NCBI RefSeq assembly: GCF_900167395.1
Contig: NZ_FUWK01000014.1
Span: 18,458-50,457, forward strand
DNA length: 32,000 nt
Direction: 5' to 3'
Origin: Nitrosomonas europaea
GTDB lineage: Bacteria; Pseudomonadota; Gammaproteobacteria; Burkholderiales; Nitrosomonadaceae
Shown: in pieces, positions 1,611 through 16,216 of the stretch
Layout of the letters: every line of letters begins with the position of its first letter
Position numbering within the stretch: the first letter of the stretch is position 1
The notes under the pieces: model-generated
What the model was told of the DNA's origin: nothing
What the model saw: only the letters and a program-made list of their open reading frames with translations
Database searches by the model: none
Translations under genes and position numbers: made by a program

Positions 1611-2933
1611 ATGAAGACTTCAATGATGCTTTTATTCCGTAATCCGTTTTCAGGGCTTAGAAAAATGGTACCGACACGTTCTTTTTGGGTTTGGCTGCAC
1701 CGCTGGGCTGGGCTGATCATGGCCGCTTTTCTGATCATCGTGGGGGCGACGGGCAGTCTGCTGGCGTTCTACCCCGAACTGGAACGCCTGATCAATCCCC
1801 ATATTTACCCCAGGCAAGTTCTGGAGAAAAAACTGGATATGGCGACGCTTGCGGAACTGGCGGAGCAGCGGGTGCCTGCCGGCAGAGTGAATGGGGTGTT
1901 GATGGAGGCCAATCAGGAAGCTACTCTGATCTCCATGGATGCCCGTCCGGATAATGCCGATCCACCGAACAAGCTTGGATTTGATCAGATGATCGTCGAT
2001 CCGTATACCGGTGAAGAGCTGGCTCGCCGCCAGTTTGGCGAGATTTCGGAAGGCATGATCAATTTCATGCCCTTCATTTACAAACTGCATTATGCGCTGG
2101 CGCTAGGCAAGTTCGGGGTATGGGTATTGGGGATTTGTGCTCTGATCTGGACGATCGATTGTTTCGTCGCGTTTTATCTGACCCTGCCGCAGCGACGCAG
2201 ATCCGTGACCGCACCCGCATCCGGTAATCATGGCAACTGGTGGCGGCGCTGGCAGCCGGCCTGGAAGATTCGCTGGCACTCGGGCAGCTACAAGCTCAAT
2301 TTCGATCTGCACCGTGCCAGCGGATTATGGCTATGGCCGGTTCTGCTCATTTTTGCCTGGTCCAGCGTCTACATGAATTTATGGGATACGGTCTATACCT
2401 GGACAACCCGGGCAGTGATGGAATACAAGGCGCCCTGGACAGAGTTTTCAAAACGGGAAATTCCTCTGGCGGAGCCTGGGGTGGATTGGCGGCAGGCTCA
2501 GCGCATTGGCGAACAGTTGATGAGTGAGCAGGCGAACAAGCATGGTTTTGCAGTCGAGCAGGTTATTGCCCTGAGACTGGATCGTGGAAACGGTACTTAT
2601 CAGTACATTGTGCGCAGTTCAAAAGAGATCCAGGATCGGCGCGGCAGAACGAGCGTATTTTTTGATGCTGATACGGGTGAACTCAAACTGGCATTGCTGG
2701 CGAGCGGCCAATACAGCGGCAATACCGTGACGAATTGGCTTTTTGCGCTGCACATGGCCAATGTATTTGGATTGCCGTACCGTATTTTTGTCTGTGTGCT
2801 CGGCCTGGTTATTGTCATGCTGTCAGTAACCGGCATCATCATCTGGATCAGGAAACGGGCAGCGCGCCTCAGCCCGAAAAATCATCAGTACGATTCGCGC
2901 TACCTGAGGCCATCGGTACATCGCGATTCATAG
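1611..2933 (+). CDS. PepSY-associated TM-helix protein (PiuB/FoxB-like putative periplasmic ferric-siderophore reductase)
   Basis: Start moved from ORF-track 1476 to ATG 1611 (MKTSMMLLF), which has a purine tract GAGAAGAGA just upstream. It has the N-terminal SFWVWLHRWAGL motif plus a TM helix, a large middle segment and C-terminal helices (NWLFALHMANVFGLPYRIFVCVLGLVIVMLSVTGIIIW). A paralogue lies at 20262-21494. Confidence 0.85.
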   Translation: MKTSMMLLFRNPFSGLRKMVPTRSFWVWLHRWAGLIMAAFLIIVGATGSLLAFYPELERLINPHIYPRQVLEKKLDMATLAELAEQRVPAGRVNGVLMEANQEATLISMDARPDNADPPNKLGFDQMIVDPYTGEELARRQFGEISEGMINFMPFIYKLHYALALGKFGVWVLGICALIWTIDCFVAFYLTLPQRRRSVTAPASGNHGNWWRRWQPAWKIRWHSGSYKLNFDLHRASGLWLWPVLLIFAWSSVYMNLWDTVYTWTTRAVMEYKAPWTEFSKREIPLAEPGVDWRQAQRIGEQLMSEQANKHGFAVEQVIALRLDRGNGTYQYIVRSSKEIQDRRGRTSVFFDADTGELKLALLASGQYSGNTVTNWLFALHMANVFGLPYRIFVCVLGLVIVMLSVTGIIIWIRKRAARLSPKNHQYDSRYLRPSVHRDS

Positions 2934-2948
2934 TCATCCGGAGAGAAA

Positions 2949-4364
2949 ATGCCGATCCGTCTCAAACCGGCTGCGGTGCTTGGCTTTGTGATGTTTGTCA
3001 GCGGCTGTCATACAGCACCGGAACGGCAGGCAAACAGGCTTGATGTTTCTGTACCTTCTGTGTGGAGTGCTTCTGCAAATACTTTTCCTCTTGCCGGGCA
3101 AAAATGGGTGGAATCGTTCGACGATCCGGTGCTGTATTCGCTGGTCGAACAGGCTTTGACCAGCAACTTCGATTTGAAGACAGCAGTGGCACGTGTCGAT
3201 GCCGCTATTGCACAGGCACGTATCGATGGCGCCGCACTCTGGCCTCAGCTCTCATTTGCACCGGGATACCAGTATACGCAGGTGCGCAGTGCCGGTTTTG
3301 GTTCGGCGCAATACAGTGTATTCGAAGCCTTGTTCAATCTGAGCTGGGAAGCGGATATCTGGGGGCGCATCCGTTCATTCAGGGAAGCAGCCCGACAGGA
3401 AGTGGAAGCAACCAACGCTGATTTTCAGGCAGCACGGCTATCGCTTGCTGCACGTGTTGCGCAGAATTATTTTGCATTACTGGAAGCGAAGCTTCAGGCT
3501 CAGGTGGCAGAACAATCTGTTGCGGATCGCGGCACGATTGCCAGTCTGGTACAAGGGCGTTTCGAACGGGGTCTGGTGCGTGCGCTGGAGGTGCGCCTGG
3601 TGTTGACCGATCTGGCCCAAGCCAGATCACAGCTCGCTGCCGCCAGAAACCAGGTGCAGCTTGTAACCCGTCAACTGGAAATTCTGCTGGGAGATTATCC
3701 TGACGGTTCATTGCCTCAAATCGACGATACGGTTACCGCTTTATCCGGTTCAACGATCCGGCAGGCTCTGCCTGTTCCTCCATCACAACTCCCTGCCGGA
3801 CTGCCTGCTGAACTGCTGACCAGACGCCCTGATCTGATCGCCTCATTTGCACGGCTGCGCGCAGCTGATGCACGGCTGGAAAGTACCAGCAAGCTGCTAT
3901 TACCGCGCATTACGCTGACAGCAGCGGGAGGGACACGTGACAGTGCGTTGACCGACCTGATCGATCCACGATCGGTCGTCTGGAATCTGTTTGCCGGAGC
4001 GGTACAACCATTGTTCACCGGTGGGCGTATCCGTGGAAGTATTCAATTGAACGAGGCCTATGTGGAAGAAGCCTTCAACCGGTATCAGGATGTGGCGCTG
4101 AATGCCTTCCGTGAAGTCGAGCAGGCACTGGCAGCAGAAGAATGGTTACGTGCACAGGAAAAAGAATTACGTGAAGCCGTGCAGCAGACTGAAGCCGGTC
4201 AGGAACTGGCGCTGTATTCCTATCGCCAGGGGTTCATCCAGATTCTGACATTGCTGGACAGCTATCGCAGTACGCTGAATGCGCAGAGTGCTCATCTGGC
4301 TGTCAGGCGGCAACTGTTGAACAACCGTGTCAATCTCTATCTTGCTCTTGGGGGCAGTATTTGA
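2949..4364 (+). CDS. RND efflux outer-membrane factor lipoprotein, NodT family
   Basis: Lipobox FVSGC near the N-terminus. The 471-aa protein has two long alpha-helical repeat halves typical of OMF/TolC-like proteins. It starts 15 nt after the PepSY stop, behind a GGAGAG RBS. Confidence 0.9.
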   Translation: MPIRLKPAAVLGFVMFVSGCHTAPERQANRLDVSVPSVWSASANTFPLAGQKWVESFDDPVLYSLVEQALTSNFDLKTAVARVDAAIAQARIDGAALWPQLSFAPGYQYTQVRSAGFGSAQYSVFEALFNLSWEADIWGRIRSFREAARQEVEATNADFQAARLSLAARVAQNYFALLEAKLQAQVAEQSVADRGTIASLVQGRFERGLVRALEVRLVLTDLAQARSQLAAARNQVQLVTRQLEILLGDYPDGSLPQIDDTVTALSGSTIRQALPVPPSQLPAGLPAELLTRRPDLIASFARLRAADARLESTSKLLLPRITLTAAGGTRDSALTDLIDPRSVVWNLFAGAVQPLFTGGRIRGSIQLNEAYVEEAFNRYQDVALNAFREVEQALAAEEWLRAQEKELREAVQQTEAGQELALYSYRQGFIQILTLLDSYRSTLNAQSAHLAVRRQLLNNRVNLYLALGGSI

Positions 4365-4562
4365 GCACCCATGAAAAATGATCTTGAGTACGATAAAAGA
4401 TACGTTATCTATCATTGAGTTACTGATTTTATTGCCGTGGCATGTCCGGTTCTGGCTGGCTAAAACGTCATAGAAGAAAAGGTTCCAAAACTACAACTCC
4501 ATTCAAACTTCTGTTTGATCATCTGCAGTGTTGTTTCCCGGTAAAAGAATAAAAACAAAATT

Positions 4563-5801
4563 GTGAGCTTACGTCGTCAAATCCGGATTGCCACCCTGGT
4601 TTTCCTTATGGGTGGATTGGCAGCCTGGCTGCTCATTCAATTCCCGCCTGAAAATGGCAAACAGGAAGAAACACTGACACCGCCCATTGTTCGGGTTGCT
4701 CAAGTGGAAATGCAATCGAAGCGTTTACATGTCCATTCACAAGGACAGGTCGTCGCGCATACCGAAATCGATCTGGTGACAGAGGTTTCCGGCCGGATCA
4801 TCGATACCTCGCCCGTTTTTGTCAGTGGTGGATATTTCAATAAAGGGGATGTGCTGGTCACCATCGATCCGGCTGATTATGACCTGCGTGTGGCACAGGC
4901 ACAGGCACAAGTCAGGGAGGCACGTCATTTACTGATGCGTGAAGAAGCGGAAGCAGCCCAGGCTCATGATGAATGGAAGCATCTGGGCCAGGGTGATCCC
5001 GGTCCACTCAGCCAGCATATTCCGCAGCTGCAGGAAATGCGTGCGAAACTGGCTGCTGCAGAAGCTGCACTCAAATATGCCAGACAGCTCAGACAACGTA
5101 CCCGGATTCGTGCCCCGTTTGACGGGCGCGTGCGCAACCACAATACCGGTATCGGGCAGTATGTCACGCAGGGTAATGTACTGGGAGTGATCTACAGCAG
5201 CGACTATGCAGAAGTCCGGTTGCCGGTTAGTACCCGGGATCTGGCGTTCATCGATGTACCCGATACATTGGTTGCGGATGAAGAGAATTCAAAGCGAATG
5301 CCGCGGGTGGTACTGGCAGCGGAATACCAGGGAGAAAAACGATTCTGGCAGGGGCGGATCGTACGCAGCGAAGGCGTGATCGATCGAAATACCGGTATGC
5401 TGATGCTGGTTGCGCGGATCCCGGATCCATTTCTGCGGACATCCTCTTCACCGCAATCCGGTGAGGATCGCTTATCCAGGCTGACCAATACCACAGCGCT
5501 GCCAGTTGGTCTGTTCGTCGAAGCCCTGATCCAGGGGCGTCGATTCGACCGGCTGGTGATTCTGCCGACCAGTGTCGTGTTCAAGGATGATCAGGTAGCC
5601 GTTGTCGATCAGCAGGATCGATTGCATCTGCGTACGGTTAAGCTGCTGAAACGTGAACATGAGCAGGCCATCATTCAGGCCGGGCTCACTGCCGGGGAGC
5701 GAGTACTGCTGTCGGGCTTGCTGCAGCCTGTAGAGGGCATGCAGGTTACACCTGAATTGCCGAACACGAATGACCAGGCCAGTGGCGACAGTCATCCATG
5801 A
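4563..5801 (+). CDS. RND efflux periplasmic adaptor (membrane fusion protein, HlyD family)
   Basis: GTG start followed by a single N-terminal anchor (IATLVFLMGGLAAWLLIQF). Lipoyl/hairpin region (GDVLVTIDPADYDLRVAQAQAQVREA ... LAAAEAALKYARQ). Its stop overlaps the RND start (ATGA at 5798-5801). Confidence 0.85.
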   Translation: MSLRRQIRIATLVFLMGGLAAWLLIQFPPENGKQEETLTPPIVRVAQVEMQSKRLHVHSQGQVVAHTEIDLVTEVSGRIIDTSPVFVSGGYFNKGDVLVTIDPADYDLRVAQAQAQVREARHLLMREEAEAAQAHDEWKHLGQGDPGPLSQHIPQLQEMRAKLAAAEAALKYARQLRQRTRIRAPFDGRVRNHNTGIGQYVTQGNVLGVIYSSDYAEVRLPVSTRDLAFIDVPDTLVADEENSKRMPRVVLAAEYQGEKRFWQGRIVRSEGVIDRNTGMLMLVARIPDPFLRTSSSPQSGEDRLSRLTNTTALPVGLFVEALIQGRRFDRLVILPTSVVFKDDQVAVVDQQDRLHLRTVKLLKREHEQAIIQAGLTAGERVLLSGLLQPVEGMQVTPELPNTNDQASGDSHP

Positions 5802-8800
5802 AACTGATCATCTGGTTTGTCAAGAATCCGGTGGCCGCCAATCTGCTGATGATCCTGATCATCGTCGGTGGAATCGTGGGATTGATCACTGCAGACCGTT
5901 ATGTCTATCCGCCGGAGCCGCGTCACCAGCTCCAGATCACTACCATTTACGACGGGGCAGGGCCAGGTGAAGTCGAGCAGGCGATCTGTATCCCGATCGA
6001 ACATGCAGTCCACGATCTGCAGGGAGTCAGGCATCTGCACGCCGAAGCAAAGCAGTCGCTTTGCCGTGTGCTGGTGGAGTTTGATCCGGCTGTCGATGCC
6101 ACCCGGCTGCAGGCGGAAGTTCAGGCACGTCTGGAAGCCGTGACAGTGTTTCCCGAGGATGCAGATAAACCGGTGATCCGTGAATTGAAAACAGGCCCGC
6201 AGGCGATCATTGCCACAGTACGCGGTATGGCTGATCTGCGTACGTTACAGCATTACCGTGATCGATTGCATATTCGGTTGAGCACTCATCCGGATATCGG
6301 TCAAATTCTGCTCTTTCCGGAAATACCGTATGAAGTATCAATCGAGATCACCAGAGAAGATTTACGGCGCTACGGCTTCAGCTTCGATGAAATTGCTGAA
6401 ATGATTCGTGCTGTTTCCGGCAATATCTCAGCAGGGGAATTAAAGAATACCGATGGCAGGTTATTGATCAGAAGCCAGGCACAGGCCATGACGGCAGAGG
6501 ATTTTGCTGCCATCCGCCTGCGATCGGACCGGCAGGGCATGCAACTGAAACTTGGCGATATCGCACATATCACTGAGACCGTACGTGACCAGAGCATGCT
6601 GGTCAGATCGGATGGTCTGCCGGCAATGGAAATCCTGATCTGGCCACGAAACCAGCTGGGGAAAACGGTAGATGCGGTAAATCAGGTCATTACCGCATTT
6701 CACTCCGAACTGCCCGCCGACGTCGAAGTGATTACCTGGGACGACTGGTCCAAGTATTACGATGAGAATATGTCGATGCTGAGAGGCAACGCCATCTCCG
6801 GCTTCATCCTGATATTCGTCGTACTGGCACTGGTTCTGGATATGCGATTGGCGTTATGGGTCAGTGCAGGCATTCTGATTTCGGTTTTCGGTGCCTTCTG
6901 GTGGATACCGATTCTGGGTATTTCCCTGAATGTCTACACCATTACCGCGTTGATTCTGATTCTGAGTGTGGTGGTGGATGATGCCATCATCGTTGGTGAG
7001 CATATCTATCTGCTTCAACAGCGGGGTCAGTCTGGTATATCCGGTGCCATCGGTGGTGTACGCGCGATGGCACCGCTGGTTGTGCCCATGGTATTGACTA
7101 CCGTGATTGCATTTACGCCGGGATTGCTGCTGCCGGGGTTGACCGGACATCTGCTGTACAACATTTCTGCAGTGGCGATCCTGGCGCTGCTGTTTTCCAT
7201 GACGGAAACACTGCTGATTCTGCCTGCCCACCTGGCCGGGCAGAGTCCAAAGGATCCAGACGCTGCAACCGGGATCATGCCTCATTTTCTGAGATATGCG
7301 ATGGCAACGCTCAAGGAGCAGGTGGATAACGGATTGCGCTGGTTGACCGGATGTTATACGCGCGCTTTGCACCTTGCACTGCAGTGGCGTTATATCGTGA
7401 TCGCCGGCTTTACGGCAGCATTACTGCTGATTGCTGCGCTGGTCATATCAGGGCGCATCACCACTGTGCTGGACAGATCGGTGGATGATTACTATCTGGT
7501 GGGCATGCTCAAATTTCCAGCTGGTACCGCATTTGAAGAAGTTGACCGCCAGTTGTTTCGGCTGGGGCATATCGCTCATGAAATCCGGGCTGAGCTGAAT
7601 CAGAAATATTATTGTGATGATTCTGCTGAGAACGGTGACAGTGTTCGTCATGTGCTGATGTTCAGTAATGATAATGTAGCGGTGGTTAACCTTGAAATGG
7701 CTATCGATGACCGTATTCGCGACCAAGTGGACGATATCAAACAGCAGTGGCGGGAACGTTTTGGCCCGTTGCCGGCGGGTACGACGTTGACCCTCCAGAG
7801 TTTCTGGCCACGTGATCTCGGTGTGTCGACAGAGGGGCCACCCAAGGCGATCGAATGGGTACTGACTGCGCCGGATACCGCTGTGCAAAATGCAGCCGGG
7901 GAGATACTGAAGCATAAGCTGGCTGCCTATGCCGGGGTGCACAGTGTCACCAGCTCGATGCAGCCCGGCAAACCTGAGCTGCATCTCGAACTGAAACCTG
8001 CCGCTGCCTTCTACGGCCTGACGATGCGTGACCTGAGTGAACAGGTACGACATGGCTTTTTCGGGCTCGAAGTGCAGCGGTACTATCACGAACACGATGA
8101 AATCCGTGTCATGCTGCGTTTCCCGCAGGAAGACCGGCAAGCACTGGAGCAGCTGCAGAATATGCCGATCAGATTACCTGGCGGGAACAGCGTACCGTTT
8201 GGCACAATTGCCCGGGCGGAATATCAGTCCGGGTTCGCCAGTATTCAACGCACTGATCGGGAACGTATTCAACTGATTGGCGCGGAAGTCTATCAGGATC
8301 AGGTGGATGTCGAATCCATCCTGGCCGATATGCGTGTGCATGTGATCCCGCAACTGAAAGCGCAATTTCCCGGGCTGGACATCAAGCCAGGCGAATCCCG
8401 GCAGAAACAGGAAGAAGTGATGTCGGATCTGTGGCTGTACGGAGTCCTGGCACTGTTTGGAATGTATGCGTTGCTTGCGATCCCGTTGCGTTCCTATGCC
8501 CAGCCATTGATCATCATGCTGACTGTTCCTTTTGGTTTCATCGGAGCAGTGGTCGGTCATTTGCTGTTTCGGATTCCACTTTCACTGGAGTCGTACTTTG
8601 CACTGTTTGCCGTGAGCGGGATTGTCATCAATGACAGTCTGGTTCTGATTGCACAGATCAATAAAAATCTGCAACAGAAAATATCTGTCATAAGAGCTGC
8701 GGTGGCAGCAGGTAAATCACGTTTCCGCGCCATATTGCTGATGAATGTCACGACCCTTGCAGGCTTGTTACCCCAGCTCAGTTCACAGGGTTACGATGCG

Positions 8801-8920
8801 GAAAAAATCATGCCGATGGCTGTCACCATTGCGTTTGGCATGCTCTTCACGTTTTTCGTCACACTGTTTCTGGTACCGGCCGTGTGTGTCGTATTCAACA
8901 AAAATATCCAAAGCGGTTAG
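5798..8920 (+). CDS. RND efflux transporter permease (AcrB/AcrD/AcrF superfamily, not HME-type)
   Basis: 1040 aa with two large periplasmic loops and a 12-TM layout. The TM4 motif is SVVVDDAIIVGEH, which is HAE-like; the heavy-metal DFG-DGA-VEN signature is absent. Confidence 0.93.
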   Translation: MKLIIWFVKNPVAANLLMILIIVGGIVGLITADRYVYPPEPRHQLQITTIYDGAGPGEVEQAICIPIEHAVHDLQGVRHLHAEAKQSLCRVLVEFDPAVDATRLQAEVQARLEAVTVFPEDADKPVIRELKTGPQAIIATVRGMADLRTLQHYRDRLHIRLSTHPDIGQILLFPEIPYEVSIEITREDLRRYGFSFDEIAEMIRAVSGNISAGELKNTDGRLLIRSQAQAMTAEDFAAIRLRSDRQGMQLKLGDIAHITETVRDQSMLVRSDGLPAMEILIWPRNQLGKTVDAVNQVITAFHSELPADVEVITWDDWSKYYDENMSMLRGNAISGFILIFVVLALVLDMRLALWVSAGILISVFGAFWWIPILGISLNVYTITALILILSVVVDDAIIVGEHIYLLQQRGQSGISGAIGGVRAMAPLVVPMVLTTVIAFTPGLLLPGLTGHLLYNISAVAILALLFSMTETLLILPAHLAGQSPKDPDAATGIMPHFLRYAMATLKEQVDNGLRWLTGCYTRALHLALQWRYIVIAGFTAALLLIAALVISGRITTVLDRSVDDYYLVGMLKFPAGTAFEEVDRQLFRLGHIAHEIRAELNQKYYCDDSAENGDSVRHVLMFSNDNVAVVNLEMAIDDRIRDQVDDIKQQWRERFGPLPAGTTLTLQSFWPRDLGVSTEGPPKAIEWVLTAPDTAVQNAAGEILKHKLAAYAGVHSVTSSMQPGKPELHLELKPAAAFYGLTMRDLSEQVRHGFFGLEVQRYYHEHDEIRVMLRFPQEDRQALEQLQNMPIRLPGGNSVPFGTIARAEYQSGFASIQRTDRERIQLIGAEVYQDQVDVESILADMRVHVIPQLKAQFPGLDIKPGESRQKQEEVMSDLWLYGVLALFGMYALLAIPLRSYAQPLIIMLTVPFGFIGAVVGHLLFRIPLSLESYFALFAVSGIVINDSLVLIAQINKNLQQKISVIRAAVAAGKSRFRAILLMNVTTLAGLLPQLSSQGYDAEKIMPMAVTIAFGMLFTFFVTLFLVPAVCVVFNKNIQSG

Positions 8921-9008: not shown

Positions 9009-9054
9009 TGCGACAATTTGTCACATTTTTCGGTCCGGAGAAAGACAGTATGAT
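9009..9054 (+). promoter_or_regulatory. Palindromic operator plus promoter, site A (upstream of ECF sigma 1)
   Basis: TGCGACAATTTGTCACA at 9009-9025, then TTTTTC at 9026-9031 and a 17-nt spacer. TATGAT at 9049-9054 is 35 nt before the ATG at 9090. Four other sites share this architecture. Confidence 0.6.
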
Positions 9055-9089: not shown

Positions 9090-9590
9090 ATGACAATTAC
9101 CTATTCCGGCGATGAACTGTTTCTTCAACTGCGCGGTGATCTGCTGAATTATCTGTGTCGCAAGCTGAGCAAAGATGAAGCAGCCGATATACTTCAGGAA
9201 ATCTATCTGCGATGGCGCAGGCAGGATATCTCGAGTATCGAAAACCCGCGCGCCTTCCTGTTTACCGTTGCGCTCAATCTGATCCGGGATCAGGCACGCC
9301 GGCAGGCGCATGTGCAAACCTACGCCAATACCATGCAACACCTGTTTCAGGATAAACCTGCGGACTATGATCTGGCACAGCATTGTGACGAACGCAGACA
9401 AATAGAATATCTGCAGCAGGCTCTGGATCAGTTGCCGGAAAATGTACGCCATGCTTTTCTTCTTTTTCGCCTCGATGGTTTGACATTTGCTGAAATCGCA
9501 CTGCAGATGGGTATTTCAAGCAAATCCGTGGCACGCTACATTCAGCACGCCAGCGAGCACTGCCTGACTGCTCTTGCGCAATATCGGTGA
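9090..9590 (+). CDS. ECF sigma factor, FecI group (sigma 1)
   Basis: Region 2 (EAADILQEIYLRWRR, ENPRAFLFTVALNLIRDQARR) and region 4 HTH (LTFAEIALQMGISSKSVARYIQHA). It is followed by a FecR-type gene. Confidence 0.9.
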   Translation: MTITYSGDELFLQLRGDLLNYLCRKLSKDEAADILQEIYLRWRRQDISSIENPRAFLFTVALNLIRDQARRQAHVQTYANTMQHLFQDKPADYDLAQHCDERRQIEYLQQALDQLPENVRHAFLLFRLDGLTFAEIALQMGISSKSVARYIQHASEHCLTALAQYR

Positions 9591-9658
9591 TAATACTCTA
9601 CTGATCATTTCGATCCTGTGAAGTAATCAGCATTTATCAAAATGCTCCGGAGTGCAGT

Positions 9659-10642
9659 ATGCACCTATCAAACAGTCCGAATTCGCATGACCCTGATGCA
9701 CAGGCACGATTCTGGTTCGCACGGCAGCAGGGTCAGACTTTGTCGGAAGCGGAACAGCAGCAACTGGCTGAATGGCTGGCTGCCAATCCACTGCATCAGG
9801 ATGCCTGGCGGCGTGTGGAGGAGGACTGGCTGGCAATCGACCGTTATCGTCATGCACTGAATGATGAGTTGAAAAAGGCACGCCGTAACCGTCCCGGACA
9901 GCATAAAGCGGCCTTTCAACTTAAACGACGGGCGGCAGCTGCAGCTCTGTTGGTGGCAGTATGCATTCCTGTGCTGTATCAGGGCATGACCGGAACGACA
10001 ACATACTGGAACACCTTGAAAGGTGAACAGCAGCAGATCACCCTGGCCGGTGGCTCCACTCTGAATCTGGATACTGCAACGCGTATCACTGTCACGCAGA
10101 ACTGGTTCACACATCATGTCCAGCTGCATGAAGGTGAAATCTATCTGGAGACGGCATCATCCGACTGGCATACTTTGAGAGTGAGTGCGGAGCATTACGA
10201 AATTCGTGATATCGGCACACGTTTTTCGGTCAGGTATATCCCTGATCAGTTCATGGTCGAAGTTGCTGAAGGTACGGTTGAAGTAAAAAAACAGGGACAG
10301 CTGGTGTTACTGCAAGCGGGTGAAGTACTTTCCATCATTACCGGCAGTAATGAATGGAGGCTGGCGGCACTGCCGGCAGGGGATATCGCTCACTGGCGCA
10401 AAGGTCTGCTGGTATTCAATGCACACCGGCTGCATGACGTATTACACGAAATCGCACGCTATCATACGGTTCAATTCGATCTGGCCGATTCCGCCATTGG
10501 CGAGATACAGGTCAGCGGTCGTTTCAAGCTCGATGAGCTCGATACCAATCTGCAAATCATCGCCGATACACTGAAAATCAATATCGAACACCCGGCACCC
10601 GGCCGTTACAGGCTGGGTGCCTTGCGGCAATCAACACGCTGA
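9659..10642 (+). CDS. FecR-family transmembrane anti-sigma factor (anti-sigma 1)
   Basis: N-terminal anti-sigma segment (ARFWFARQQ), one TM helix (AAAALLVAVCIPVLY) and a periplasmic FecR domain with IRDIGTRFSV. That Gly-Thr matches the position of the autoproteolytic GT described for FoxR/FecR-type proteins. Confidence 0.9.
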   Translation: MHLSNSPNSHDPDAQARFWFARQQGQTLSEAEQQQLAEWLAANPLHQDAWRRVEEDWLAIDRYRHALNDELKKARRNRPGQHKAAFQLKRRAAAAALLVAVCIPVLYQGMTGTTTYWNTLKGEQQQITLAGGSTLNLDTATRITVTQNWFTHHVQLHEGEIYLETASSDWHTLRVSAEHYEIRDIGTRFSVRYIPDQFMVEVAEGTVEVKKQGQLVLLQAGEVLSIITGSNEWRLAALPAGDIAHWRKGLLVFNAHRLHDVLHEIARYHTVQFDLADSAIGEIQVSGRFKLDELDTNLQIIADTLKINIEHPAPGRYRLGALRQSTR

Positions 10643-10753
10643 GGGACACACACGCATTCACCGAAGTATCATGCTGTGTGTGCCGTATATCGATCACGAG
10701 TCGGAAAGTAGCCGGGATTATTTACTATCAGTTCATCCCGGCCCTCGTACTTG

Positions 10754-11377
10754 TTATTTGAAATGTCTGATACGGGTATATTCTCCTTCAGTTTTGAGCG
10801 TAATCGTCATCGGGGTGGATGTCCGGTTTCGCCAGAACCACCCATGATCACCGTCAAAAGCTGCTTCTAAGACGCCTTCCCGCATTTGTCCGGTCCCCTT
10901 GCTGTAACTATGGTAGTTGATCTTCAGTTCTTTTGAATCTCCATGCTGATCAAAAACAGCTGTTCCACCATTAGTCCGCCAAACGTAGTGAACTTTACTT
11001 CCCTTTGTCATCGTCACCTTGATCTCAGTACCTTGATTTGGGGCAAGCGTTATCTTTTTTTCATGACTCATCTCTGATTTTGGAGCAAGCGGCAGAGATT
11101 CTGTTACTGCTGTTACCGCTTCAGATAATTCGATCTGCAGGCTGGCAGCCGCATTCGCCCGATCTGCAGTTGCTTCTTCTGTCAGAGAAACTTTGATTTC
11201 TCCCATTCTTTTCAGACCGGTGATTTCACCGAAACCGGTTGGATCGATACCGTATTCCGCAGGCATTACAACAGTGACGAGTAAAAATATCGCAGTCAGT
11301 AATGCAATGACGGTAGATCTGATCAATCTGCCGGTTGAGGGTATCTCATGAGTTGAAGGTATGTTTGCGTTATACAT
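10754..11377 (-). CDS. membrane-anchored periplasmic protein of unknown function (N-terminal TM anchor plus His/Trp-containing beta-rich C-terminal domain)
   Basis: 207-aa ORF with a TM anchor (LIRSTVIALLTAIFLLVTVVMPA). The C-terminal ~110 aa are beta-like (KVHYVWRTNGGTAVFDQHGD, NYHSYSKG, FDGDHGWFWRN). It begins 20 nt downstream of the HupE-type gene on the same strand. I recognise no characterised family. Confidence 0.7.
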   Translation of the reverse strand: MYNANIPSTHEIPSTGRLIRSTVIALLTAIFLLVTVVMPAEYGIDPTGFGEITGLKRMGEIKVSLTEEATADRANAAASLQIELSEAVTAVTESLPLAPKSEMSHEKKITLAPNQGTEIKVTMTKGSKVHYVWRTNGGTAVFDQHGDSKELKINYHSYSKGTGQMREGVLEAAFDGDHGWFWRNRTSTPMTITLKTEGEYTRIRHFK

Positions 11378-11397
11378 AATTTTTCCTGTAAGAATAA

Positions 11398-12081
11398 TCA
11401 GATAGTGCTGAATAAAATGAAATGGCCTGTAATCTGGTATCCCATCAAGAGGAAGCCGAGCATCATCATGAATGTATTGGTGTTATAGGCGTGGTTCATG
11501 AATTTTCCGGATTTCCTCCAATATGCAATTGCGATCAGAATGGCCGCCAGTGCCAGAATTTGTCCGATCTCGACACCGATATTGAAGAAAATGAGATTTG
11601 GCAGGAGTCCATCAGCCGGTAATTCGTACTCCAGGATCTTGGTGGCAAGGCCAAAACCATGAAACAGTCCGAAGATAAAAGTGGCAATCTTTGTATCAGG
11701 CTGAAAACCAAACCAGCGCTGAAAGGCTCCCATATTGTCCAGAGATTTGTAAACGATGGAAAATCCGATGATTGCATCGATCAGATAAGGGCTGACAGCA
11801 ACCTCAAACAGAACACCGGATAACAGCGTAATGACATGGCCGGCAGCGAACAGCGTGACATAAATACAGATGTCCTTCAGTCGATACAAAAAGAAAATCA
11901 CACCCAGCAGAAAAAGCAGATGATCGTGACCGGTCATCATATGTTTTGCGCCGAGATAAATAAAAGGTATCGGCAATATGCCGGTACTTTCCAGGATATA
12001 GCCCTTGTCACCCTCGGTGACACCATGCGCAGTAACATCAGAAGTAACTCCAAAAATTACTGCGATAAAAAGAGCCTTCAT
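11398..12081 (-). CDS. HupE/UreJ-family (HupE_UreJ_2-like) integral membrane metal permease
   Basis: Signal-like N-terminus (MKALFIAVIFGVTSDVTAHG) if started at ATG 12081; the ORF track extends to 12153. It has the GAKHMMTGHDHLLFLLGV motif (H-x3-G-x-DH-LL) followed by about 5 further TM helices. Confidence 0.8.
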   Translation of the reverse strand: MKALFIAVIFGVTSDVTAHGVTEGDKGYILESTGILPIPFIYLGAKHMMTGHDHLLFLLGVIFFLYRLKDICIYVTLFAAGHVITLLSGVLFEVAVSPYLIDAIIGFSIVYKSLDNMGAFQRWFGFQPDTKIATFIFGLFHGFGLATKILEYELPADGLLPNLIFFNIGVEIGQILALAAILIAIAYWRKSGKFMNHAYNTNTFMMMLGFLLMGYQITGHFILFSTI

Positions 12082-12364
12082 ACATAAACAAGTCAACACG
12101 CCATGCTCCACAGGAGATGACATTTTCATTTCAGTCATGCAAATTGTCTCCATGAATTACAGTCCGTGGATCCGGAATTTCCGTAAACCGCGGCGATGGA
12201 ACGGGTGCTGCAACAGTACTGGTTCTGTCAGGAATATAGCCTTTCCCCTGTCAAGTATCCGAGACAATGATTACCAGATGAAACCGGTAATACTGAGACA
12301 GGACATACAACAGACTGAAATCGCACTGGCGCTGACTGAGCCGTCAGCACACCCGATTGTGAAA

Positions 12365-12763
12365 TTAGTACCTGATTTCTAAAGAAGCGGTATTTCGAGG
12401 AGGGCGGAACGGTAAATCAAGAGTTGATTCAGGAATGCCGGCAGGAAAGAATCCGGGGATATTTTCCTTTCCCGGGAGAGATGGAATAATCGGTAGCAAG
12501 ATAAAATAGAAAGGCTGAAACTGCCCGGCTGCATGCAGGATTAAATGATCTGTGAAATCCGGATCGTTATCGAGGGTTTCGTCATGATGCTGATGAAACC
12601 CTGTATCTGCTGCGTGATCATGGTACGAATGATGATGATCGAATCTATGCGATACATGGAAATGATCAAGCTCATGTTTGAAGATTTCCTGATGGAATGA
12701 CCAGGCAACTGCATTTGTCAATAAACTGACAAACAGTATCAGAAGAATAAAATTGTCGGTCAT
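12365..12763 (-). CDS. His-rich secreted or membrane-anchored protein, unknown function (probable metal-binding)
   Basis: Preferred start is ATG 12763 (MTDNFILLILFVSLLTNAVAW), with AAGAGA 5 nt upstream. Alternative starts are ATG 12778 or the ORF-track GTG 12874. There are 15 His in a 55-residue stretch (FHQEIFKHELDHFHVSHRFDHHHSYHDHAADTGFHQHHDE...HLILH). It is the first gene downstream of operator site B. Confidence 0.65.
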   Translation of the reverse strand: MTDNFILLILFVSLLTNAVAWSFHQEIFKHELDHFHVSHRFDHHHSYHDHAADTGFHQHHDETLDNDPDFTDHLILHAAGQFQPFYFILLPIIPSLPGKENIPGFFPAGIPESTLDLPFRPPRNTASLEIRY

Positions 12764-13141
12764 ATATCTCTTGCCCATGGCAGCAAAACTGTATACACAC
12801 CCGATCAGATCGTCAACTTTTCTGATCTGATAAAAGGTGGTTTGATGATTGCACTGATTTTTCCTGAAAATCACACTGAAAACAGCTGACTAAATCCTGA
12901 CGACAGTGGACGAAAAGTGACATAAAAACAATGGCAGGAGAAGTAGAAAAAAAACGCCTGTCGATTTATAAAAAGACTATAAAAGGACAGGCAGAAGTAG
13001 AGGAGGGAAGCAATTACTTACCGGTGAGCACACTTTCATCCAGACAAGATCCGAAAGAAAAACCTGCATTCTTTCTCATGAATCTATATTCATATTGCAG
13101 ATATGAATCCGGATATCAGAGGTGGTACAGATAATGAGCCA

Positions 13142-13187
13142 ATTATGTTCTCAAACATCCTGTTTGAGAATGTGACATATTGTCGCA
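13142..13187 (-). promoter_or_regulatory. Palindromic operator plus promoter, site B (minus strand, faces the His-rich/HupE operon)
   Basis: On the minus strand: TGCGACAATATGTCACA (13187-13171), TTCTCA (13170-13165), a 17-nt spacer and CATAAT (13147-13142). The phasing is identical to the four sigma-gene sites. Confidence 0.55.
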
Positions 13188-13253
13188 TCGCTTATTTGGC
13201 GAGGCTTTTGGCTGAAAAGAAGTGCAAAATTCGAGTTGAAATGTATCGAGATA

Positions 13254-13284
13254 GGAACGGTCAGCTAAGCTGACCGTTCCTTTT
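13254..13284 (+). terminator. Rho-independent terminator-like hairpin (plus strand), no annotated gene upstream
   Basis: GGAACGGTCAGC / GCTGACCGTTCC forms a 12-bp perfect stem (13254-13265 and 13269-13280) with a 3-nt loop, followed by TTTT (13281-13284). There is no A-run on the other side, so it is plus-oriented. Confidence 0.55.
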
Positions 13285-13552
13285 CACATCATCCGGCATG
13301 CGAGTTCACAATCGCTGCACGGGCGAACGGAGAACATCCTGCTCGCTTCATGTCCCGGTTTTAAAATGTGCAATGTGGTAAGAAACTGCACCTAAGCAGG
13401 TGCCTCATTTCTGTTTGGCCTGTACGATATCTTCTGATATACCCTGATAACTCTTTGAAAATCATACATATACACATAGAAAAAGCTCAGAGACTTCAGT
13501 AACGCTGCTGTATGCAAAGGTGGGCATGATGTAAAGGTGTCCGCAAATCTGT

Positions 13553-13579
13553 TTGTCCACTTTTTCCGACCCGTGCGTC
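13553..13579 (+). promoter_or_regulatory. candidate ECF (FecI-type) promoter of receptor 1
   Basis: TTGTCC (13553-13558), 17 nt, then CGTC (13576-13579), 55 nt before the ATG. Similar elements precede the other three receptor genes. Confidence 0.35.
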
Positions 13580-13630
13580 CTGTAAGTAGCAAAAGATCAG
13601 AACGATCAACTTACAGGGAGTACGTCGAAA

Positions 13631-15994
13631 ATGCAGCACTATCTGTCAATCATGATTTTAATTCTGCTGTTGCCGGTTGCTCATGCCCAGACCGGGGCAG
13701 CAGGAAGCACTTCAACGGCGATCAACTGGCATCTGTCAGCCCAGCCTTTGAGCACAGCATTGCAGCAACTGGCTGAACACAGCAATACCAGTATCATGTT
13801 TGATGCAGCAACTGTCCGTAACATTCAGGCTCCATCCCTCCGTGGCCAGTACACGCCGCTGGAAGCATTGAAAAAACTATTGTCCGGCAGCGGCCTGCAG
13901 GCCGAGGAAACGGTACCCGGCAGGTTCAGTATCGTACAGGCAGCAACAACCGTACAGCAGTTACCGGAAATGACTGTCACCGGCGCTCCTGATCCGGATT
14001 CACCGTACAGCACGCAATATAAAGTACCTGATACGACGACGGCGACCAGGACGAAAACGCCGATCATGGAAACACCGATGTCGATACAGGTGGTGCCTAA
14101 ATCAGTGATGAACGATCAGCAGGCGATTACGCTGGAGCAGTCGCTAAGAAACGTCAGTGGCGTTTTTCACGGGATTGGTCAAGGTGGGGTGGAATTTCTT
14201 AATATCCGTGGTTTTCAGACTTGGGATTACTATCGAAACGGTGTGCGGTTTACATCTGCACAGACACAAACTGGTTACCGAGAAGTGGCCAATCTGGAAA
14301 GGATAGAAGTCCTCAAGGGGCCAGCTTCGATTCTGTATGGTCGGATCGAGCCGGGGGGAATGGTCAATCTGGTGCCGAAAACACCACAAGCCACGCCGTA
14401 TTATTCATTACAGCAACAATTCGGTTCATATAATCTGTTTCGTACCACGCTGGATGCTACGGGTGGATTGAATCAGGATAGTTCATTGCTGTACCGTCTG
14501 AATTTTGCCTATGAAGATAAGGGTTCGTTTCGCGAGTTTGTTGATAATCATCATTTCTTCGTGGCACCAGTGTTGCAATGGCAAATATCTGACCGTACCC
14601 AGATTACCGCTGAGATGGAATATAAGACCGGCAAGTACTCAGTGGACTATGGTTTTCCGGCGATTGGCAACCGACCAGCCAACTTGCCGATCAATCGTCA
14701 ACTGGGCGAATCATTTAATAGTGCTAAATTTGATGAAATTACAGCCGGATTCCACTGGTCTCATGCATTCAATGACAACTGGGAGATAAAACACCGTTTC
14801 TATCTGCAACGAACTGACGAAGGCGATGATGTTGTGATACCGTCGGCATTACGAACAGATAACCGTACTCTCGATCGTTTTTATGCGGGATTCAGAAACG
14901 CTAAAGTAGATACCTATACGACAAATATGGACTTGACGGGCCATGTTGAAACATTCGGGACCCAACATACGCTGCTGATGGGTGGCGATTATTACAATTT
15001 CAGAAATCGCCGCCTCATGATTTCGAATTTTGATTTTCCGTCCATTGATATTTTTAATCCGGTGCATAGTGGCACAGCTATTCGGGATTCGGCCAATGAT
15101 AGTCCTTATGACAGAAGAGATGACTGGTTTGGTCTGTATTTCCAGGATCAGATAAAATTACCCTATAACGTGCATGTGCTGGCAGGTTTCCGCTACGACA
15201 ATGCCGAGATAAAAAACATATCCGGAAGGAAAAGCGCGCAGGATAAAATTTCACCGCGTGTTGGCGTGTTATGGCAACCGATTCCAGCTCTTTCATTTTA
15301 CGGCAATTATATCGAGAATTTCGGCGCTCCAAATTTAGGCACGAGTGGACTCGACGGGCAGCCACTTCCAGCTGAAACAGCACAACAATGGGAAGCCGGG
15401 ATAAAAACAGAATTTTTTGACGGACGTTTTAGTGCAACACTTGCCTGGTTCCAGCTCACCAAGCAAAACATTGCAACCCCTCACCCTGATCCACAACTGG
15501 CGCTGCAGAGAATTTCAGTATTGACCGGAGAGGCGCGCAATCAAGGCGTTGAATTCGATATTACCGGTGAATTGTTACCTGGCTGGCAGTTGATTGCCAA
15601 TTATACTTATATCGATTCGGAAATAACCAAAACCAATAACAATATGCAGTTGGGTAACCGCTTCCCGAATGTACCCGAACACGCCGGTAATATCTGGACC
15701 ACTTATGCCTTTCAGAATGAAACCTTGCGTGGGTTGAAAATTGGTGGCGGTGTGACGCTCAGAGGAAAACGTGAAGGCAATCCGGAAAATGATTTTCAGA
15801 TGCCTGGTTACGCAGTTTTTAACCTGATGACGAGTTATGCAATGAAAATGGGTAAAACCCGGGTGACGGCACAGTTGAATGTCAATAATCTGTTTAATGA
15901 GGAATATTTCCCCGGTAGTGGTGGATTCAATCGTGCGCGTATCTTTGTAGGTACACCACGTGTATTTCTGGGCTCGCTCCGGGTCGAGTATTAA
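13631..15994 (+). CDS. TonB-dependent siderophore receptor with N-terminal STN signalling domain (transducer 1)
   Basis: Signal peptide (MQHYLSIMILILLLPVAHAQ) and an STN-like segment (LSTALQQLAEHSNTSIMFDAATV...LLSGSGLQAEE). TonB-box-like LPEMTVTG, plug motifs (TPMSIQVVPK, IEVLKGPASILYGRIEPGG) and a long barrel ending in LRVEY. Confidence 0.93.
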   Translation: MQHYLSIMILILLLPVAHAQTGAAGSTSTAINWHLSAQPLSTALQQLAEHSNTSIMFDAATVRNIQAPSLRGQYTPLEALKKLLSGSGLQAEETVPGRFSIVQAATTVQQLPEMTVTGAPDPDSPYSTQYKVPDTTTATRTKTPIMETPMSIQVVPKSVMNDQQAITLEQSLRNVSGVFHGIGQGGVEFLNIRGFQTWDYYRNGVRFTSAQTQTGYREVANLERIEVLKGPASILYGRIEPGGMVNLVPKTPQATPYYSLQQQFGSYNLFRTTLDATGGLNQDSSLLYRLNFAYEDKGSFREFVDNHHFFVAPVLQWQISDRTQITAEMEYKTGKYSVDYGFPAIGNRPANLPINRQLGESFNSAKFDEITAGFHWSHAFNDNWEIKHRFYLQRTDEGDDVVIPSALRTDNRTLDRFYAGFRNAKVDTYTTNMDLTGHVETFGTQHTLLMGGDYYNFRNRRLMISNFDFPSIDIFNPVHSGTAIRDSANDSPYDRRDDWFGLYFQDQIKLPYNVHVLAGFRYDNAEIKNISGRKSAQDKISPRVGVLWQPIPALSFYGNYIENFGAPNLGTSGLDGQPLPAETAQQWEAGIKTEFFDGRFSATLAWFQLTKQNIATPHPDPQLALQRISVLTGEARNQGVEFDITGELLPGWQLIANYTYIDSEITKTNNNMQLGNRFPNVPEHAGNIWTTYAFQNETLRGLKIGGGVTLRGKREGNPENDFQMPGYAVFNLMTSYAMKMGKTRVTAQLNVNNLFNEEYFPGSGGFNRARIFVGTPRVFLGSLRVEY
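13961..15994 (+). repeat. High-identity paralogous segment, copy 1 (plug plus barrel of receptor 1), matches 18226-20259
   Basis: Both copies are 2034 nt. They share long runs of identical nucleotides, for example gacgaaaacgccgatcatggaaacaccgatgtcgatacaggtggtgcctaaatcagt. Similarity starts at ttaccggaaatgactgtcacc and ends at the stop codon. Confidence 0.9.
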
Positions 15995-16170: not shown

Positions 16171-16216
16171 TGCGACAATTTGTCGCATTCCACCCTTATG
16201 GCAAACACAGCATAAT
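16171..16216 (+). promoter_or_regulatory. Palindromic operator plus promoter, site C (upstream of ECF sigma 2)
   Basis: Perfect 8-1-8 palindrome TGCGACAATTTGTCGCA (16171-16187), TTCCAC, a 17-nt spacer and CATAAT (16211-16216), 34 nt before ATG 16251. Confidence 0.65.

Follow-up and report, generated by a model that had tools for sequence, protein, structure and literature searches.

Three co-directional genes on the minus strand of a Nitrosomonas europaea contig, all of them intact ORFs, encode an exported His-rich protein, a polytopic permease and a membrane-anchored protein (genes 1, 2 and 3, Table 1). With about even confidence, we consider this trio a widespread and mobile module for stress by divalent metals of the Ni/Co class, located here beside an operator-controlled small RNA (sRNA) unit. 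The permease and anchor genes are an obligate pair, which in other genomes belongs to Ni/Co(-Zn/Cd)-type resistance islands and is found either under RcnR/InrS-type operators or last in czcCBA-type operons. The initial annotation of this stretch of DNA (32,000 nt, the window from here on) had described the trio as a metal-related system without an assigned substrate, adjoining an operator common to four sigma genes, and to this extent our analysis agrees with it.

Table 1. Features discussed in the text, with their positions in the window.
Feature	Position	Strand	Basis or remark
Gene 3, "transmembrane anchor protein" (NCBI name), 207 aa	10754..11377	-	homology, position
Gene 2, HupE_UreJ_2 (PF13795) polytopic permease, 246 aa	11398..12138	-	Pfam HMM
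Gene 1, exported His-rich protein, 137 aa	12365..12778	-	alternative start 12763
Second promoter-like element, sigma-70-like TTGACG-17-TACAGT	12788..12816	-	just 5' of gene 1, inside a ~110-nt conserved block
Candidate small RNA or terminated leader, ~190 nt	12947..13135	-	fold, terminator, comparison with strain L001
Operator-phased promoter-like elements: weak -35 TTCTCA, 17-nt spacer, -10 CATAAT	13142..13170	-	
Operator palindrome TGCGACAATATGTCACATT (site B)	13169..13187	-	one of five copies in the window
Operator copy 5' of FecI-type sigma gene 1	9009..9027	+	exact match
Other operator copies	16171-16189, 23120-23138, 27371-27389	+	exact matches

The synteny of the trio is conserved well beyond this genome. 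In every locus with upstream DNA among 80 species genomes, covering at least 12 phyla, the HupE_UreJ_2 gene lies immediately 5' of the anchor gene and on the same strand. Of the species genomes scanned, at least 595 have the pair. It also occurs on hundreds of conjugative plasmids from the genera Klebsiella, Enterobacter, Escherichia, Acinetobacter and Pseudomonas (395 plasmid matches, 224 of them conjugative). A small, His-rich, signal-bearing protein is encoded upstream of the pair in ca. 50 loci. These counterparts of gene 1, identified by their position, have the same components, i.e., a signal sequence, a His-rich region and a C-terminal motif (RPPR/K, PLYLSTQRLRI or IIRGPP; FRPPR in gene 1). 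The dN/dS values in the comparison with the closest relative, strain L001, were 0.30, 0.10 and 0.15 for genes 1, 2 and 3, indicating purifying selection on all three.

Gene 2 was readily placed by the profile searches. It matches PF13795 with E = 8e-54 (182 bits vs a cut-off of 24.5, profile positions 1-155 of 156) and carries the motif KHMMTGHDHLLF, so that its previous description as a HupE/UreJ_2-like protein stands. The HMM of the characterized HupE/UreJ permeases (PF04955) gave no match, PF13795 alone being reported at E <= 1; the two families presumably belong to the same Pfam clan. The likely start codon is at 12138, with alternatives at 12153 and 12081. Numbering from the last of these, the residues A18/H19, D25, E31, H47, D53, H54, H82, H141 and E171 are shared by at least 97% of the sequences from 80 genomes, and cleavage of the predicted signal peptide (at A18/H19, a site located by inspection) would expose His19. 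Identity across phyla is 61-82%, and the protein (227-246 aa) has about 25 residues between His19 and the first transmembrane helix and lacks a fused domain of ~170 aa. A sequence search of the PDB with the permease found nothing meaningful.

The product of gene 3 is also widely distributed (3676 homologues in the protein search, 100% coverage, E down to 1e-116). The motifs HYVWR, FDQHGD and DGDHGWFWRN, already pointed out in the initial annotation, are present, and neither Pfam nor NCBIfam gave a family match. The protein begins with a short conserved N-terminus and a single transmembrane helix; the juxtamembrane segment that follows is again conserved, and a variable linker leads to the C-terminal beta-sandwich. 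By the positive-inside rule its topology is probably N-in, C-out. The alignment contains 60 invariant columns, and H145, D147, H178, W180 and W182, all in the beta-sandwich domain, are invariant. The AF2 model has a mean pLDDT of 64, with values of 70-89 over most of the beta domain, and the loop 147-162, which holds invariant residues, is poorly modelled. Foldseek with this model retrieved generic jelly-roll, GOLD and cupin folds (E ~1e-4 to 1e-2), with no specific family and no match to Ang-1, and a PDB sequence search with the anchor-protein profile gave nothing meaningful, including no similarity to the solved Ang-1 domain.

The His-rich character of gene 1 behind a signal-like N-terminus was confirmed (15 His in 54 residues). 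Its first ATG is at 12778 (MGKRY...); the ATG at 12763 used before is the second in-frame start and is a GTG codon in L001. No family was assigned by Pfam and NCBIfam, the matches to CopL_fam and the RcnA loop being compositional and sub-threshold; the former (NF033807) was weak for gene 1 (E = 0.043, 14.5 bits vs a cut-off of 40), and only one of ten counterparts gave a match, also weak. The homologue search retrieved its own cluster only, because this protein evolves fast.

The relation of the trio to the neighboring operator (site B) is less direct than had been thought. Site B does share palindrome and phasing with the four sigma-gene promoters: the pattern TGCGACAnnnTGTCRCATT has exactly five directional matches in the window (0.08 expected by chance), and in all five the -10-like hexamer starts exactly 41 nt from the first base of the palindrome. 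The trio had been placed directly downstream of it, which is wrong, as the first ATG of gene 1 is ~410 nt away from the operator. This gap consists of a conserved 190-nt unit with a strong terminator at its end, then a spacer that has diverged, then another conserved region that resembles a promoter. The terminator and ~170 further nt lie between the operator-phased promoter and gene 1. In the RNA expected from the 190-nt unit (5' end deduced from the -10 hexamer) an unpaired CU-rich stretch (cuucccuccucuacuucu) precedes a terminator-like 15-bp hairpin (12992-12956, -17.3 kcal/mol) followed by T8 (U8) at 12954-12947. The fold z-score of the unit is -3.2, and L001 has a compensatory change (T-A to C-G) in the hairpin. 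The RNA body is ~93% identical to L001, and the 70 nt past the terminator ~70% identical. Two small leader ORFs (21 and 30 aa) were rejected because both ATGs are gone in L001. The second promoter has both hexamers identical in L001 with a different spacer; its nine of 12 consensus matches are by themselves not above chance, and together with the 12778 translation start it would give a nearly leaderless mRNA.

Most simply, site B drives an sRNA. Since the operator, the phased promoter and the terminated CU-rich RNA form a separate unit, we therefore regard site B as primarily the promoter of an sRNA and the trio as having its own conserved upstream region, even if its promoter is no stronger than chance matches. 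The regulatory link between site B and the trio, which the initial annotation took as read directly from the sequence, is not directly readable, given the strong terminator and the second promoter region that intervene; coupling the trio to the operator would require read-through of the terminator. The position of the trio, between a FecR gene and its receptor and beside the shared operator, does speak against this reading, and some read-through is conceivable. It is in principle also conceivable, if rather doubtful, that the trio is transcribed from site B behind a long, regulated 5' leader, with the hairpin and U8 serving as a riboswitch-like element or conditional attenuator. Unit and trio lie side by side in both available Nitrosomonas strains, the second promoter is statistically weak, and a 5' UTR of ~360 nt with a terminator would be typical of attenuation. 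This is opposed by the sharp divergence directly past the terminator, with conservation regained near gene 1, and by the lack of any Rfam family match. With covariance models run over positions 10400-13700 at E <= 1, no known sRNA (RyhB, PrrF, NrrF etc.) or riboswitch was detected, the sole match, AaHKsRNA41, being at chance level (24.7 bits vs a gathering score of 97); six related sRNA-like loci gave no matches either. Also against it, the same operator drives short terminated RNAs elsewhere. The design of an operator followed by a short terminated CU-rich RNA recurs in at least four to five metagenome contigs (L110, L121 and L135/L166 in a strict scan, L159 and L151 by eye), where these RNAs stand alone, in some cases in tandem, and are not followed by a gene.

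Many metagenome contigs carry the operator together with its phased promoter. It is found there 5' of genes for TonB receptors and copper chaperones and of short CU-rich RNAs, and points to a regulator absent from the literature searched (the literal operator sequence, psRNA11, PF13795 and HupE_UreJ_2 gave no match there). The -10 hexamer at 41 nt is present in 31 of 56 metagenome operator sites, and sites of class b precede metal-acquisition genes (TonB receptors, PCuAC, SCO1). One contig (L168) with AmoC 3' of an operator copy was set aside because that site has no phased -10 hexamer. A Pfam search of 133 ORFs neighboring the metagenome sites did not find any Fur-family or other recurrent regulator, and by eye the shared operator was not seen upstream of "orphan" alpha-type trios. 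The site B operator is kept in L001. A second palindrome that had been described at site B (TTCTCAAACA/TGTTTGAGAA) was dropped as an operator, as it is unique to the window and no longer palindromic in L001. The Fur boxes of N. europaea are similar to the E. coli consensus (PMC3050691), and scanning the window for the canonical 19-bp box (GATAATGATAATCATTATC-like) gave no match upstream of sigma or receptor genes; seven of the eight matches with at least 13/19 positions were within long ORFs.

A way to approach the role of the trio is to look at the company that the pair keeps in other genomes. Among 82 loci, 44 have at least one metal efflux or resistance gene near the pair, namely RcnR/CsoR-family repressors (18), RND/MFP/OMF components (14-16), MFS_3 (15), CDF (11), NicO/RcnA (10), ChrA/ChrB (8-9) and P-type ATPases (8), and czcCBA-type RND pumps and ncrABCY are also among the neighbors. 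In an E. coli IncC plasmid rcnA-rcnR are divergent from the trio, and in a Klebsiella plasmid ncrABCY lies ~5 kb from it. In 11 loci an RcnR/InrS-type operator (TATCCCC-N1-6-GGGGAT) is located 40-120 nt 5' of the small His-rich gene, adjoined by repressors that show a C-H-C fingerprint and have an N-terminal tail rich in His; this points to regulation by metal excess in those genomes. Other Nitrosomonas genomes have the pair at the end of czcCBA-type operons, and in two of them (L090 and L091) its start codon overlaps the end of the CzcA-type gene. A locus that can be equated with the trio by architecture and protein sizes, not by sequence, is operon 63 of Sphingobium sp. ba1, which comprises nreB, a cnrCBA-like pump, a 140-aa protein, a 219-aa HupE/UreJ protein and a 189-aa TM protein (the last three being IL54_0277, IL54_0275 and IL54_0274); in LB the operon is silent, nickel induces it, and no other gene of the genome is induced as strongly as its HupE/UreJ gene (PMC5557971).

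Taken together, these observations suggest a module in which the exported His-rich protein would act with a permease of six transmembrane helices, whose mature N-terminus would be a periplasmic histidine, and with a type-II membrane-anchored protein exposing a predicted periplasmic beta-sandwich with invariant His, Asp and Trp residues. A Ni/Co-class cation may be moved or buffered by it at the inner membrane and periplasm under metal stress. Its partners would most likely be efflux pumps, the module either moving metal from the cytoplasm into the periplasm or passing metal already in the periplasm to the pumps. In this N. europaea-type genome the module has no RcnR-type operator and lies downstream of a separate operator-promoter-RNA unit. 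Several observations weigh against the Ni/Co stress reading. The window has no Ni/Co sensor (no PF02583 gene), no C/G-tract operator of the RcnR/InrS/DmeR type (TATCCCC-N-GGGGATA) and no dedicated Ni/Co exporter, and 38 of the 82 loci have no recognized resistance gene near the pair. The HupE/UreJ and anglerase relatives are importers or proposed importers (PMC12537917), and the metal-binding parts of the trio all face the periplasm, so that capture for uptake fits as well as hand-off.

Another reading is nutritional uptake of a trace metal (Ni, Co or Cu), with the anchor and His-rich proteins as a split anglerase domain feeding the permease and the location in resistance islands reflecting homeostatic balancing or the supply of a competing essential metal. 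In the anglerases described in Nat Commun (2025), Ang-1 or Ang-2 fusions with HupE/UreJ-2, the histidine is the first residue after the signal peptide and a periplasmic beta-sandwich domain is fused to the permease; these proteins bind Cu above Ni and a role in uptake has been proposed (PMC12537917). The conserved His19, the periplasmic beta-sandwich of the anchor protein with its invariant His and the class-b operator sites preceding acquisition genes elsewhere would all fit. We nevertheless find this reading unlikely, as the RcnR/InrS-type operators predict induction by excess and not by shortage of Ni/Co, the Sphingobium locus of matching architecture is strongly induced by nickel excess (PMC5557971), the translational coupling to CzcA-type pumps points to efflux and the solved Ang-1 domain has no match in sequence or fold. 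Furthermore, no riboswitch (cobalamin, NiCo) or known sRNA was found with Rfam in 19 upstream regions of other trios, and urease, hydrogenase and B12 genes are absent both from the window and from the recurrent neighbors in the 82 loci.

A broader proposal, which we judge distinctly unlikely, is that the trio is a three-component "split anglerase" importing protective Fe(II) or Mn(II) during Ni/Co poisoning, and that TGCGACA-N3-TGTCRCA is the operator of an unrecognized, widespread regulator of metal limitation. If true, such import would explain both the location in Ni/Co islands and the recruitment beside siderophore genes, the split anglerase would be a new class of inner-membrane metal transporter, and the regulon would comprise TonB receptors, FecI-type sigma genes, PepSY reductases, PCuAC/SCO1 copper chaperones and RyhB-like CU-rich sRNAs.

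The proposal of the initial annotation, that the trio is an inner-membrane importer of periplasmically released siderophore iron transcribed from site B within the same regulon, appears very improbable. The inventory behind it is right (four STN-type TonB receptors, two PepSY_TM genes and no ABC or Feo importer, to which four FecI/FecR pairs can be added), and it is favored by the operator and phasing common to the four FecI-type sigma genes, the siderophore-type flanking receptor (TIGR01783, 415 bits), the lack of another iron permease in the window and the permease nature of HupE-type proteins with a periplasmic N-terminal His (PMC12537917). However, the suggested co-occurrence did not materialize: across the 82 loci of other genomes, homologues of TonB receptors, PepSY_TM and FecR are all absent out to ~8 kb from the pair; context and regulation there are those of metal resistance and excess, L001 has operator, leader and trio together with no flanking FecIR or receptor genes, a strong terminator and diverged spacer lie between site B and gene 1, and a 32-kb window says nothing on iron permeases elsewhere in the genome. 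A Ni/Co/Cu system, given then as a second option, is nearer to the evidence than iron import. Working out the trio, which we continue to see as a Ni/Co-class stress module, would fill a gap in the management of such metals at the Gram-negative inner membrane and periplasm and would shed light on metal co-selection on resistance plasmids.

Several known systems resemble parts of this locus. The site B unit is similar to the repressor-controlled iron-sparing sRNAs RyhB, PrrF1/PrrF2 and NrrF in that a metal-uptake-type operator lies at the promoter and the RNA is short, ends in an intrinsic terminator and leaves a pyrimidine-rich stretch unpaired, and also in its tandem copies in some metagenome contigs, but it has no Rfam match and its operator is not a Fur box. 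Like the CopL family, gene 1 encodes a small protein, hydrophobic at its N-terminus and rich in His over one region, and heads a metal operon, although it scores far under the cut-off of that family and most counterparts from other loci do not match it. With the HupE/UreJ Ni/Co permeases of PF04955 (Rhizobium leguminosarum and the cyanobacterial HupE) gene 2 shares being a small polytopic inner-membrane protein with a signal peptide, the His/Asp-rich motif H-x3-G-x-DH in the first TM and a metal cation as the presumed substrate; it differs in matching PF13795, in lying outside any hydrogenase or urease cluster, in always being accompanied by the anchor-protein gene and in having efflux and resistance genes as neighbors. 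The anglerases are closer, with PF13795, a His directly after the signal peptide and an associated periplasmic beta-sandwich metal-binding element in common. Yet gene 2 has no fused Ang-1/Ang-2 domain, the beta-sandwich being on a separate type-II anchored protein, and here there is a third, His-rich protein and a context of metal resistance instead of metal-dependent enzymes. The RcnR-RcnA(-RcnB) and NcrABCY efflux determinants, often next to the trio elsewhere and with a divergent operator in common, also pair a membrane transporter with an accessory protein in the periplasm, but the trio proteins are unrelated by HMM to RcnA/NicO, RcnB and NcrY, and none of those genes is in the window. Finally, the order and sizes of the trio genes are those of Sphingobium operon 63, where the trio follows a cnrCBA/czcCBA-like pump, as in Nitrosomonas L090, with a CsoR/RcnR-family repressor alongside; the trio of the window differs in having neither a Ni sensor nor a heavy-metal-type RND pump next to it, while for the Sphingobium locus the induction by nickel has been measured.

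The three genes that make up the trio (see table) are intact, co-directional ORFs on the minus strand, and every motif quoted for them in the initial annotation was found. The product of gene 1 begins with MGKRY, followed by a hydrophobic signal-like segment, and contains 15 His within 54 residues, with FRPPR as its C-terminal motif; the start first assigned to it is the second in-frame ATG. The start of the permease gene (gene 2) is preceded by a GGAGA Shine-Dalgarno sequence 8 nt upstream and is identical to the one called by NCBI in the matching genome assembly. Across 80 genomes, conservation is at least 97% for the A18/H19 junction of the permease and for residues D25, E31, H47, D53, H54, H82, H141 and E171, and H19 would be the first residue once the predicted signal peptide is cleaved. 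The gene 3 product, which had no family match in Pfam or NCBIfam, has a short conserved N terminus ahead of a single TM helix; a conserved juxtamembrane segment and then a variable linker lead to a beta-sandwich of ~105 residues, in which H145, D147, H178, W180 and W182 are invariant. The predicted periplasmic domain covers residues ~100-207. Foldseek related it to nothing more specific than jelly-roll, GOLD and cupin folds, and no relatives were found by sequence in the PDB. By their predicted topology, all three proteins carry metal ligands facing the periplasm. The copy of the trio in the nearest relative, L001 (Nitrosomonas sp. GCA_044507425.1), is 87-98% identical to that of the window, with low dN/dS values (0.30, 0.10 and 0.15 for genes 1 to 3) that mark all three as expressed genes under selection.

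The trio had been placed directly downstream of site B, an operator and promoter thought to be common to it and to four FecI-type sigma genes. The common operator is well established: the pattern TGCGACAnnnTGTCRCATT (palindrome duplex TGCGACAATTTGTCGCA) has exactly five directional matches in the window, against a chance expectation of 0.08, and each of them is followed by a -10-like hexamer (TATGAT, CATAAT, CATAAT, GATAAT, CATAAT) whose start is 41 nt away from the operator's first base. This places the palindrome at roughly -52 to -36, right against a weak -35. In three sigma genes operator and promoter fall inside the longest ORF, so that the true starts must lie further downstream. TGCGACA-N3-TGTCRCA is not a Fur box; our scan of the window found no canonical Fur box upstream of sigma or receptor genes, and the published Fur boxes of N. 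europaea resemble the E. coli consensus (PMC3050691).

The direct regulatory link from site B to the trio, on the other hand, was not supported, since a terminated segment of ~190 nt, 70 diverged nucleotides and a second conserved region intervene. The segment folds with a z of -3.2; a 15-bp hairpin with U8 behind it forms its end, and an unpaired CU-rich stretch (cuucccuccucuacuucu) lies just before the hairpin. Operator, promoter and RNA body are ~93% identical between the window and L001, where the hairpin shows a compensatory change (T-A to C-G) and the two small ORFs within the segment have both lost their ATGs. In the 70 nt after the terminator identity drops to ~70%, but conservation returns over the final 110 nt ahead of gene 1, where a TTGACG-17-TACAGT element keeps its two hexamers. 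This conserved-diverged-conserved pattern indicates two separate units: one is an sRNA-like gene, the other the upstream region of the trio. Site B thus looks like the promoter of a putative terminated, CU-rich small RNA, which had no match in Rfam; a coupling of the trio to the shared operator would need terminator read-through and appears rather unlikely. Within the conserved stretch just before gene 1, an inverted repeat with one mismatch in L001 could be the binding site for a regulator of the trio's own putative promoter. Another, perfect 14-bp repeat (AGGAACGGTCAGCT / AGCTGACCGTTCCT), followed by TTTT on the plus strand, is found just beyond ~13251, where similarity to L001 stops, and could be the boundary of an inserted unit or a plus-strand terminator.

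The operator was also found in at least 119 metagenome contigs, with two classes of sites. In class a the palindrome is fused to a perfect TTGACA, often in several copies per contig, and precedes small ORFs of phage or plasmid type on contigs of like character. Class b sites have no -35 consensus, and 31 of 56 have the -10 hexamer at exactly position 41 (other offsets account for 0-5 sites each, mostly 0-2). TonB-receptor Plug domains were present in 15 of the 45 genes tested behind class b sites; other genes there encode PepSY_TM, TonB, PCuAC, SCO1/SenC and thioredoxin-like proteins. In one contig (L095) a BNR_2-like gene lies downstream of an operator-controlled TonB receptor. Several class b sites precede no gene at all and instead an RNA of ~80-120 nt with a CU-rich stretch and a terminator at its end (L110, L121, L135/L166, L159 and L151 have the operator and phased -10 before such RNAs). 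None of these RNAs matched Rfam, and some of them are tandem copies, an arrangement that recalls PrrF1/PrrF2. No regulator gene recurred near the operator sites of these contigs. The combination of operator and small RNA is a lead separate from the trio and worth pursuing.

The window contains four FecI/FecR/STN-type TonB-receptor cassettes, two PepSY_TM genes, an RND efflux trio and a PIN-domain gene. The trio lies between a FecR gene and a receptor of siderophore type (TIGR01783, 415 bits; best named matches FhuA/FoxA-like), and together with the small RNA splits this presumed receptor from its FecI/FecR pair. In L001 the same unit stands beside the same RND and PepSY genes without FecI/FecR or receptor, so that a rearrangement has taken place here between close relatives. 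The RND system is divergent (378 bits vs a cut-off of 1250 for the multidrug model, 210 bits vs 701 for the CusA/CzcA model) and keeps the trio and a PepSY_TM gene as neighbours in both Nitrosomonas strains.

Positions in the window of the trio, the operator copies and the neighbouring features
Feature	Position	Strand	Remark
Gene 1, His-rich protein	12365-12778	-	intact ORF; second in-frame ATG at 12763
Gene 2, permease	11398-12138	-	Pfam HupE_UreJ_2, E = 8e-54
Gene 3, anchor protein	10754-11377	-	intact ORF
Operator copies	9009, 16171, 23120, 27371	+	upstream of sigma genes
Operator copy, site B	13187-13169	-	pattern search
Candidate small RNA	12947 to ~13135	-	~190 nt
Inverted repeat	12857-12875	-	TGATTTT-N5-AAAATCA
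Inverted repeat	13253-13281		14 bp
Longest sigma ORFs	starts 16152, 23119, 27294		true starts roughly 16251, 23210, 27466
BNR_2-like protein (weak)	7-1182		followed by PepSY_TM
PepSY_TM gene	1476-2933		
RND system	2949-8920		
FecI/FecR pair	9090-10642		
Presumed receptor	13631-15994		
PIN-domain toxin-like gene	22517-22933	-	between second and third receptor cassettes

The family of gene 3, to which NCBI gives the name 'transmembrane anchor protein', is large and very conserved. A protein search gave 3676 matches, the best 120 of them full length and 57-100% identical, and a genome scan found the gene in at least 595 species. The best 80 loci come from Proteobacteria, Cyanobacteria, Verrucomicrobia, Planctomycetes, Elusimicrobia, Zixibacteria, Calditrichaeota, Acidobacteria, Bacteroidota and others; wherever upstream DNA was present, a HupE_UreJ_2 gene (61-82% identity to gene 2) precedes the anchor gene immediately on the same strand. 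For gene 1 itself, no homologues could be detected by sequence beyond its own cluster. Nevertheless, ~50 loci encode, just upstream of the pair, a small protein that evolves fast and combines a signal sequence and a His-rich region with a short motif at the C terminus (RPPR/K, PLYLSTQRLRI or IIRGPP), and the three-gene architecture is therefore general. The synteny of the trio is thus conserved, with an obligate two-gene core and a variable His-rich partner. It is also highly mobile: the anchor gene is carried by 395 PLSDB plasmids (148 from Klebsiella, 55 from Enterobacter), 224 of them conjugative. The trio of the window is one more member of this very large, mobile family. In eight loci (L009, L013, L025, L027, L032, L070, L077, L087) a conserved membrane protein of ~114 aa without Pfam match is encoded on the same strand ~620-1630 nt after the anchor gene start, in most cases directly after this gene; a DUF6488 protein lies nearby in five loci. 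Both may be extra components of the module and are absent from the window.

The neighbourhoods of 82 pair-bearing loci from other genomes were surveyed by clustering the neighbouring ORFs and assigning them to Pfam. The most frequent neighbour was a repressor of the RcnR/CsoR family (18/82, usually divergent, at -1.5 kb), followed by RND, MFP and OMF components (14-16 loci), MFS_3 (15), CDF (11), NicO/RcnA (10), ChrA/ChrB (8-9) and P-type ATPases (8); at least one of these metal-resistance families appeared in 44 loci. On an E. coli IncC plasmid rcnA-rcnR is divergent from a hypothetical protein, HupE/UreJ and the anchor, and on a Klebsiella plasmid chrB and ncrABCY lie ~5 kb from the trio. 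At 11 loci the small His-rich gene is preceded, at a distance of 40-120 nt, by the palindrome TATCCCC-N1-6-GGGGAT, and the adjoining repressors have the C-H-C fingerprint and His-rich N-terminal tail typical of Ni/Co sensors (RcnR, InrS, DmeR). No RcnR-type operator for the trio was found in the window. In other Nitrosomonas genomes the pair stands at the end of an OEP-CzcB-CzcA operon, and its start codon overlaps with the RND gene's end; in further ones it stands between an RND and an MFS_3 gene, or after chrBA. Read from these neighbourhoods, the context of the trio elsewhere is one of metal excess and not of iron uptake.

The association with Ni/Co-class sensors and efflux systems suggests that the module either transports or buffers a cation of the Ni/Co class at the inner membrane under metal stress, probably together with efflux pumps. 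The regulation by excess sensors elsewhere and the translational coupling to CzcA speak for a place on the efflux side. The wider superfamily of HupE/UreJ holds importers and exporters alike, so that family membership does not settle the direction of transport. The characterised HupE/UreJ proteins import metal, and the 'anglerase' fusions of HupE/UreJ-2 are proposed importers (PMC12537917). The inner-membrane route for iron proposed in the initial annotation is not supported by the comparative evidence, as none of the 82 loci had a TonB receptor, PepSY_TM or FecR homologue near the pair and their context is of the excess type. What was observed there has largely stood, and of its interpretation the part that saw an uncharacterised metal system, which proved to be conserved. 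In the trio the HupE/UreJ-2 permease theme takes a split form with three components, and by architecture and protein sizes the trio can be likened to an operon of Sphingobium sp. ba1, with the order nreB, His-rich ORF, cnrCBA-like pump, 140-aa protein, 219-aa HupE/UreJ, 189-aa TM protein and 90-aa protein. Silent in LB, that operon shows strong induction by nickel, its HupE/UreJ gene being the most induced of the genome (PMC5557971).
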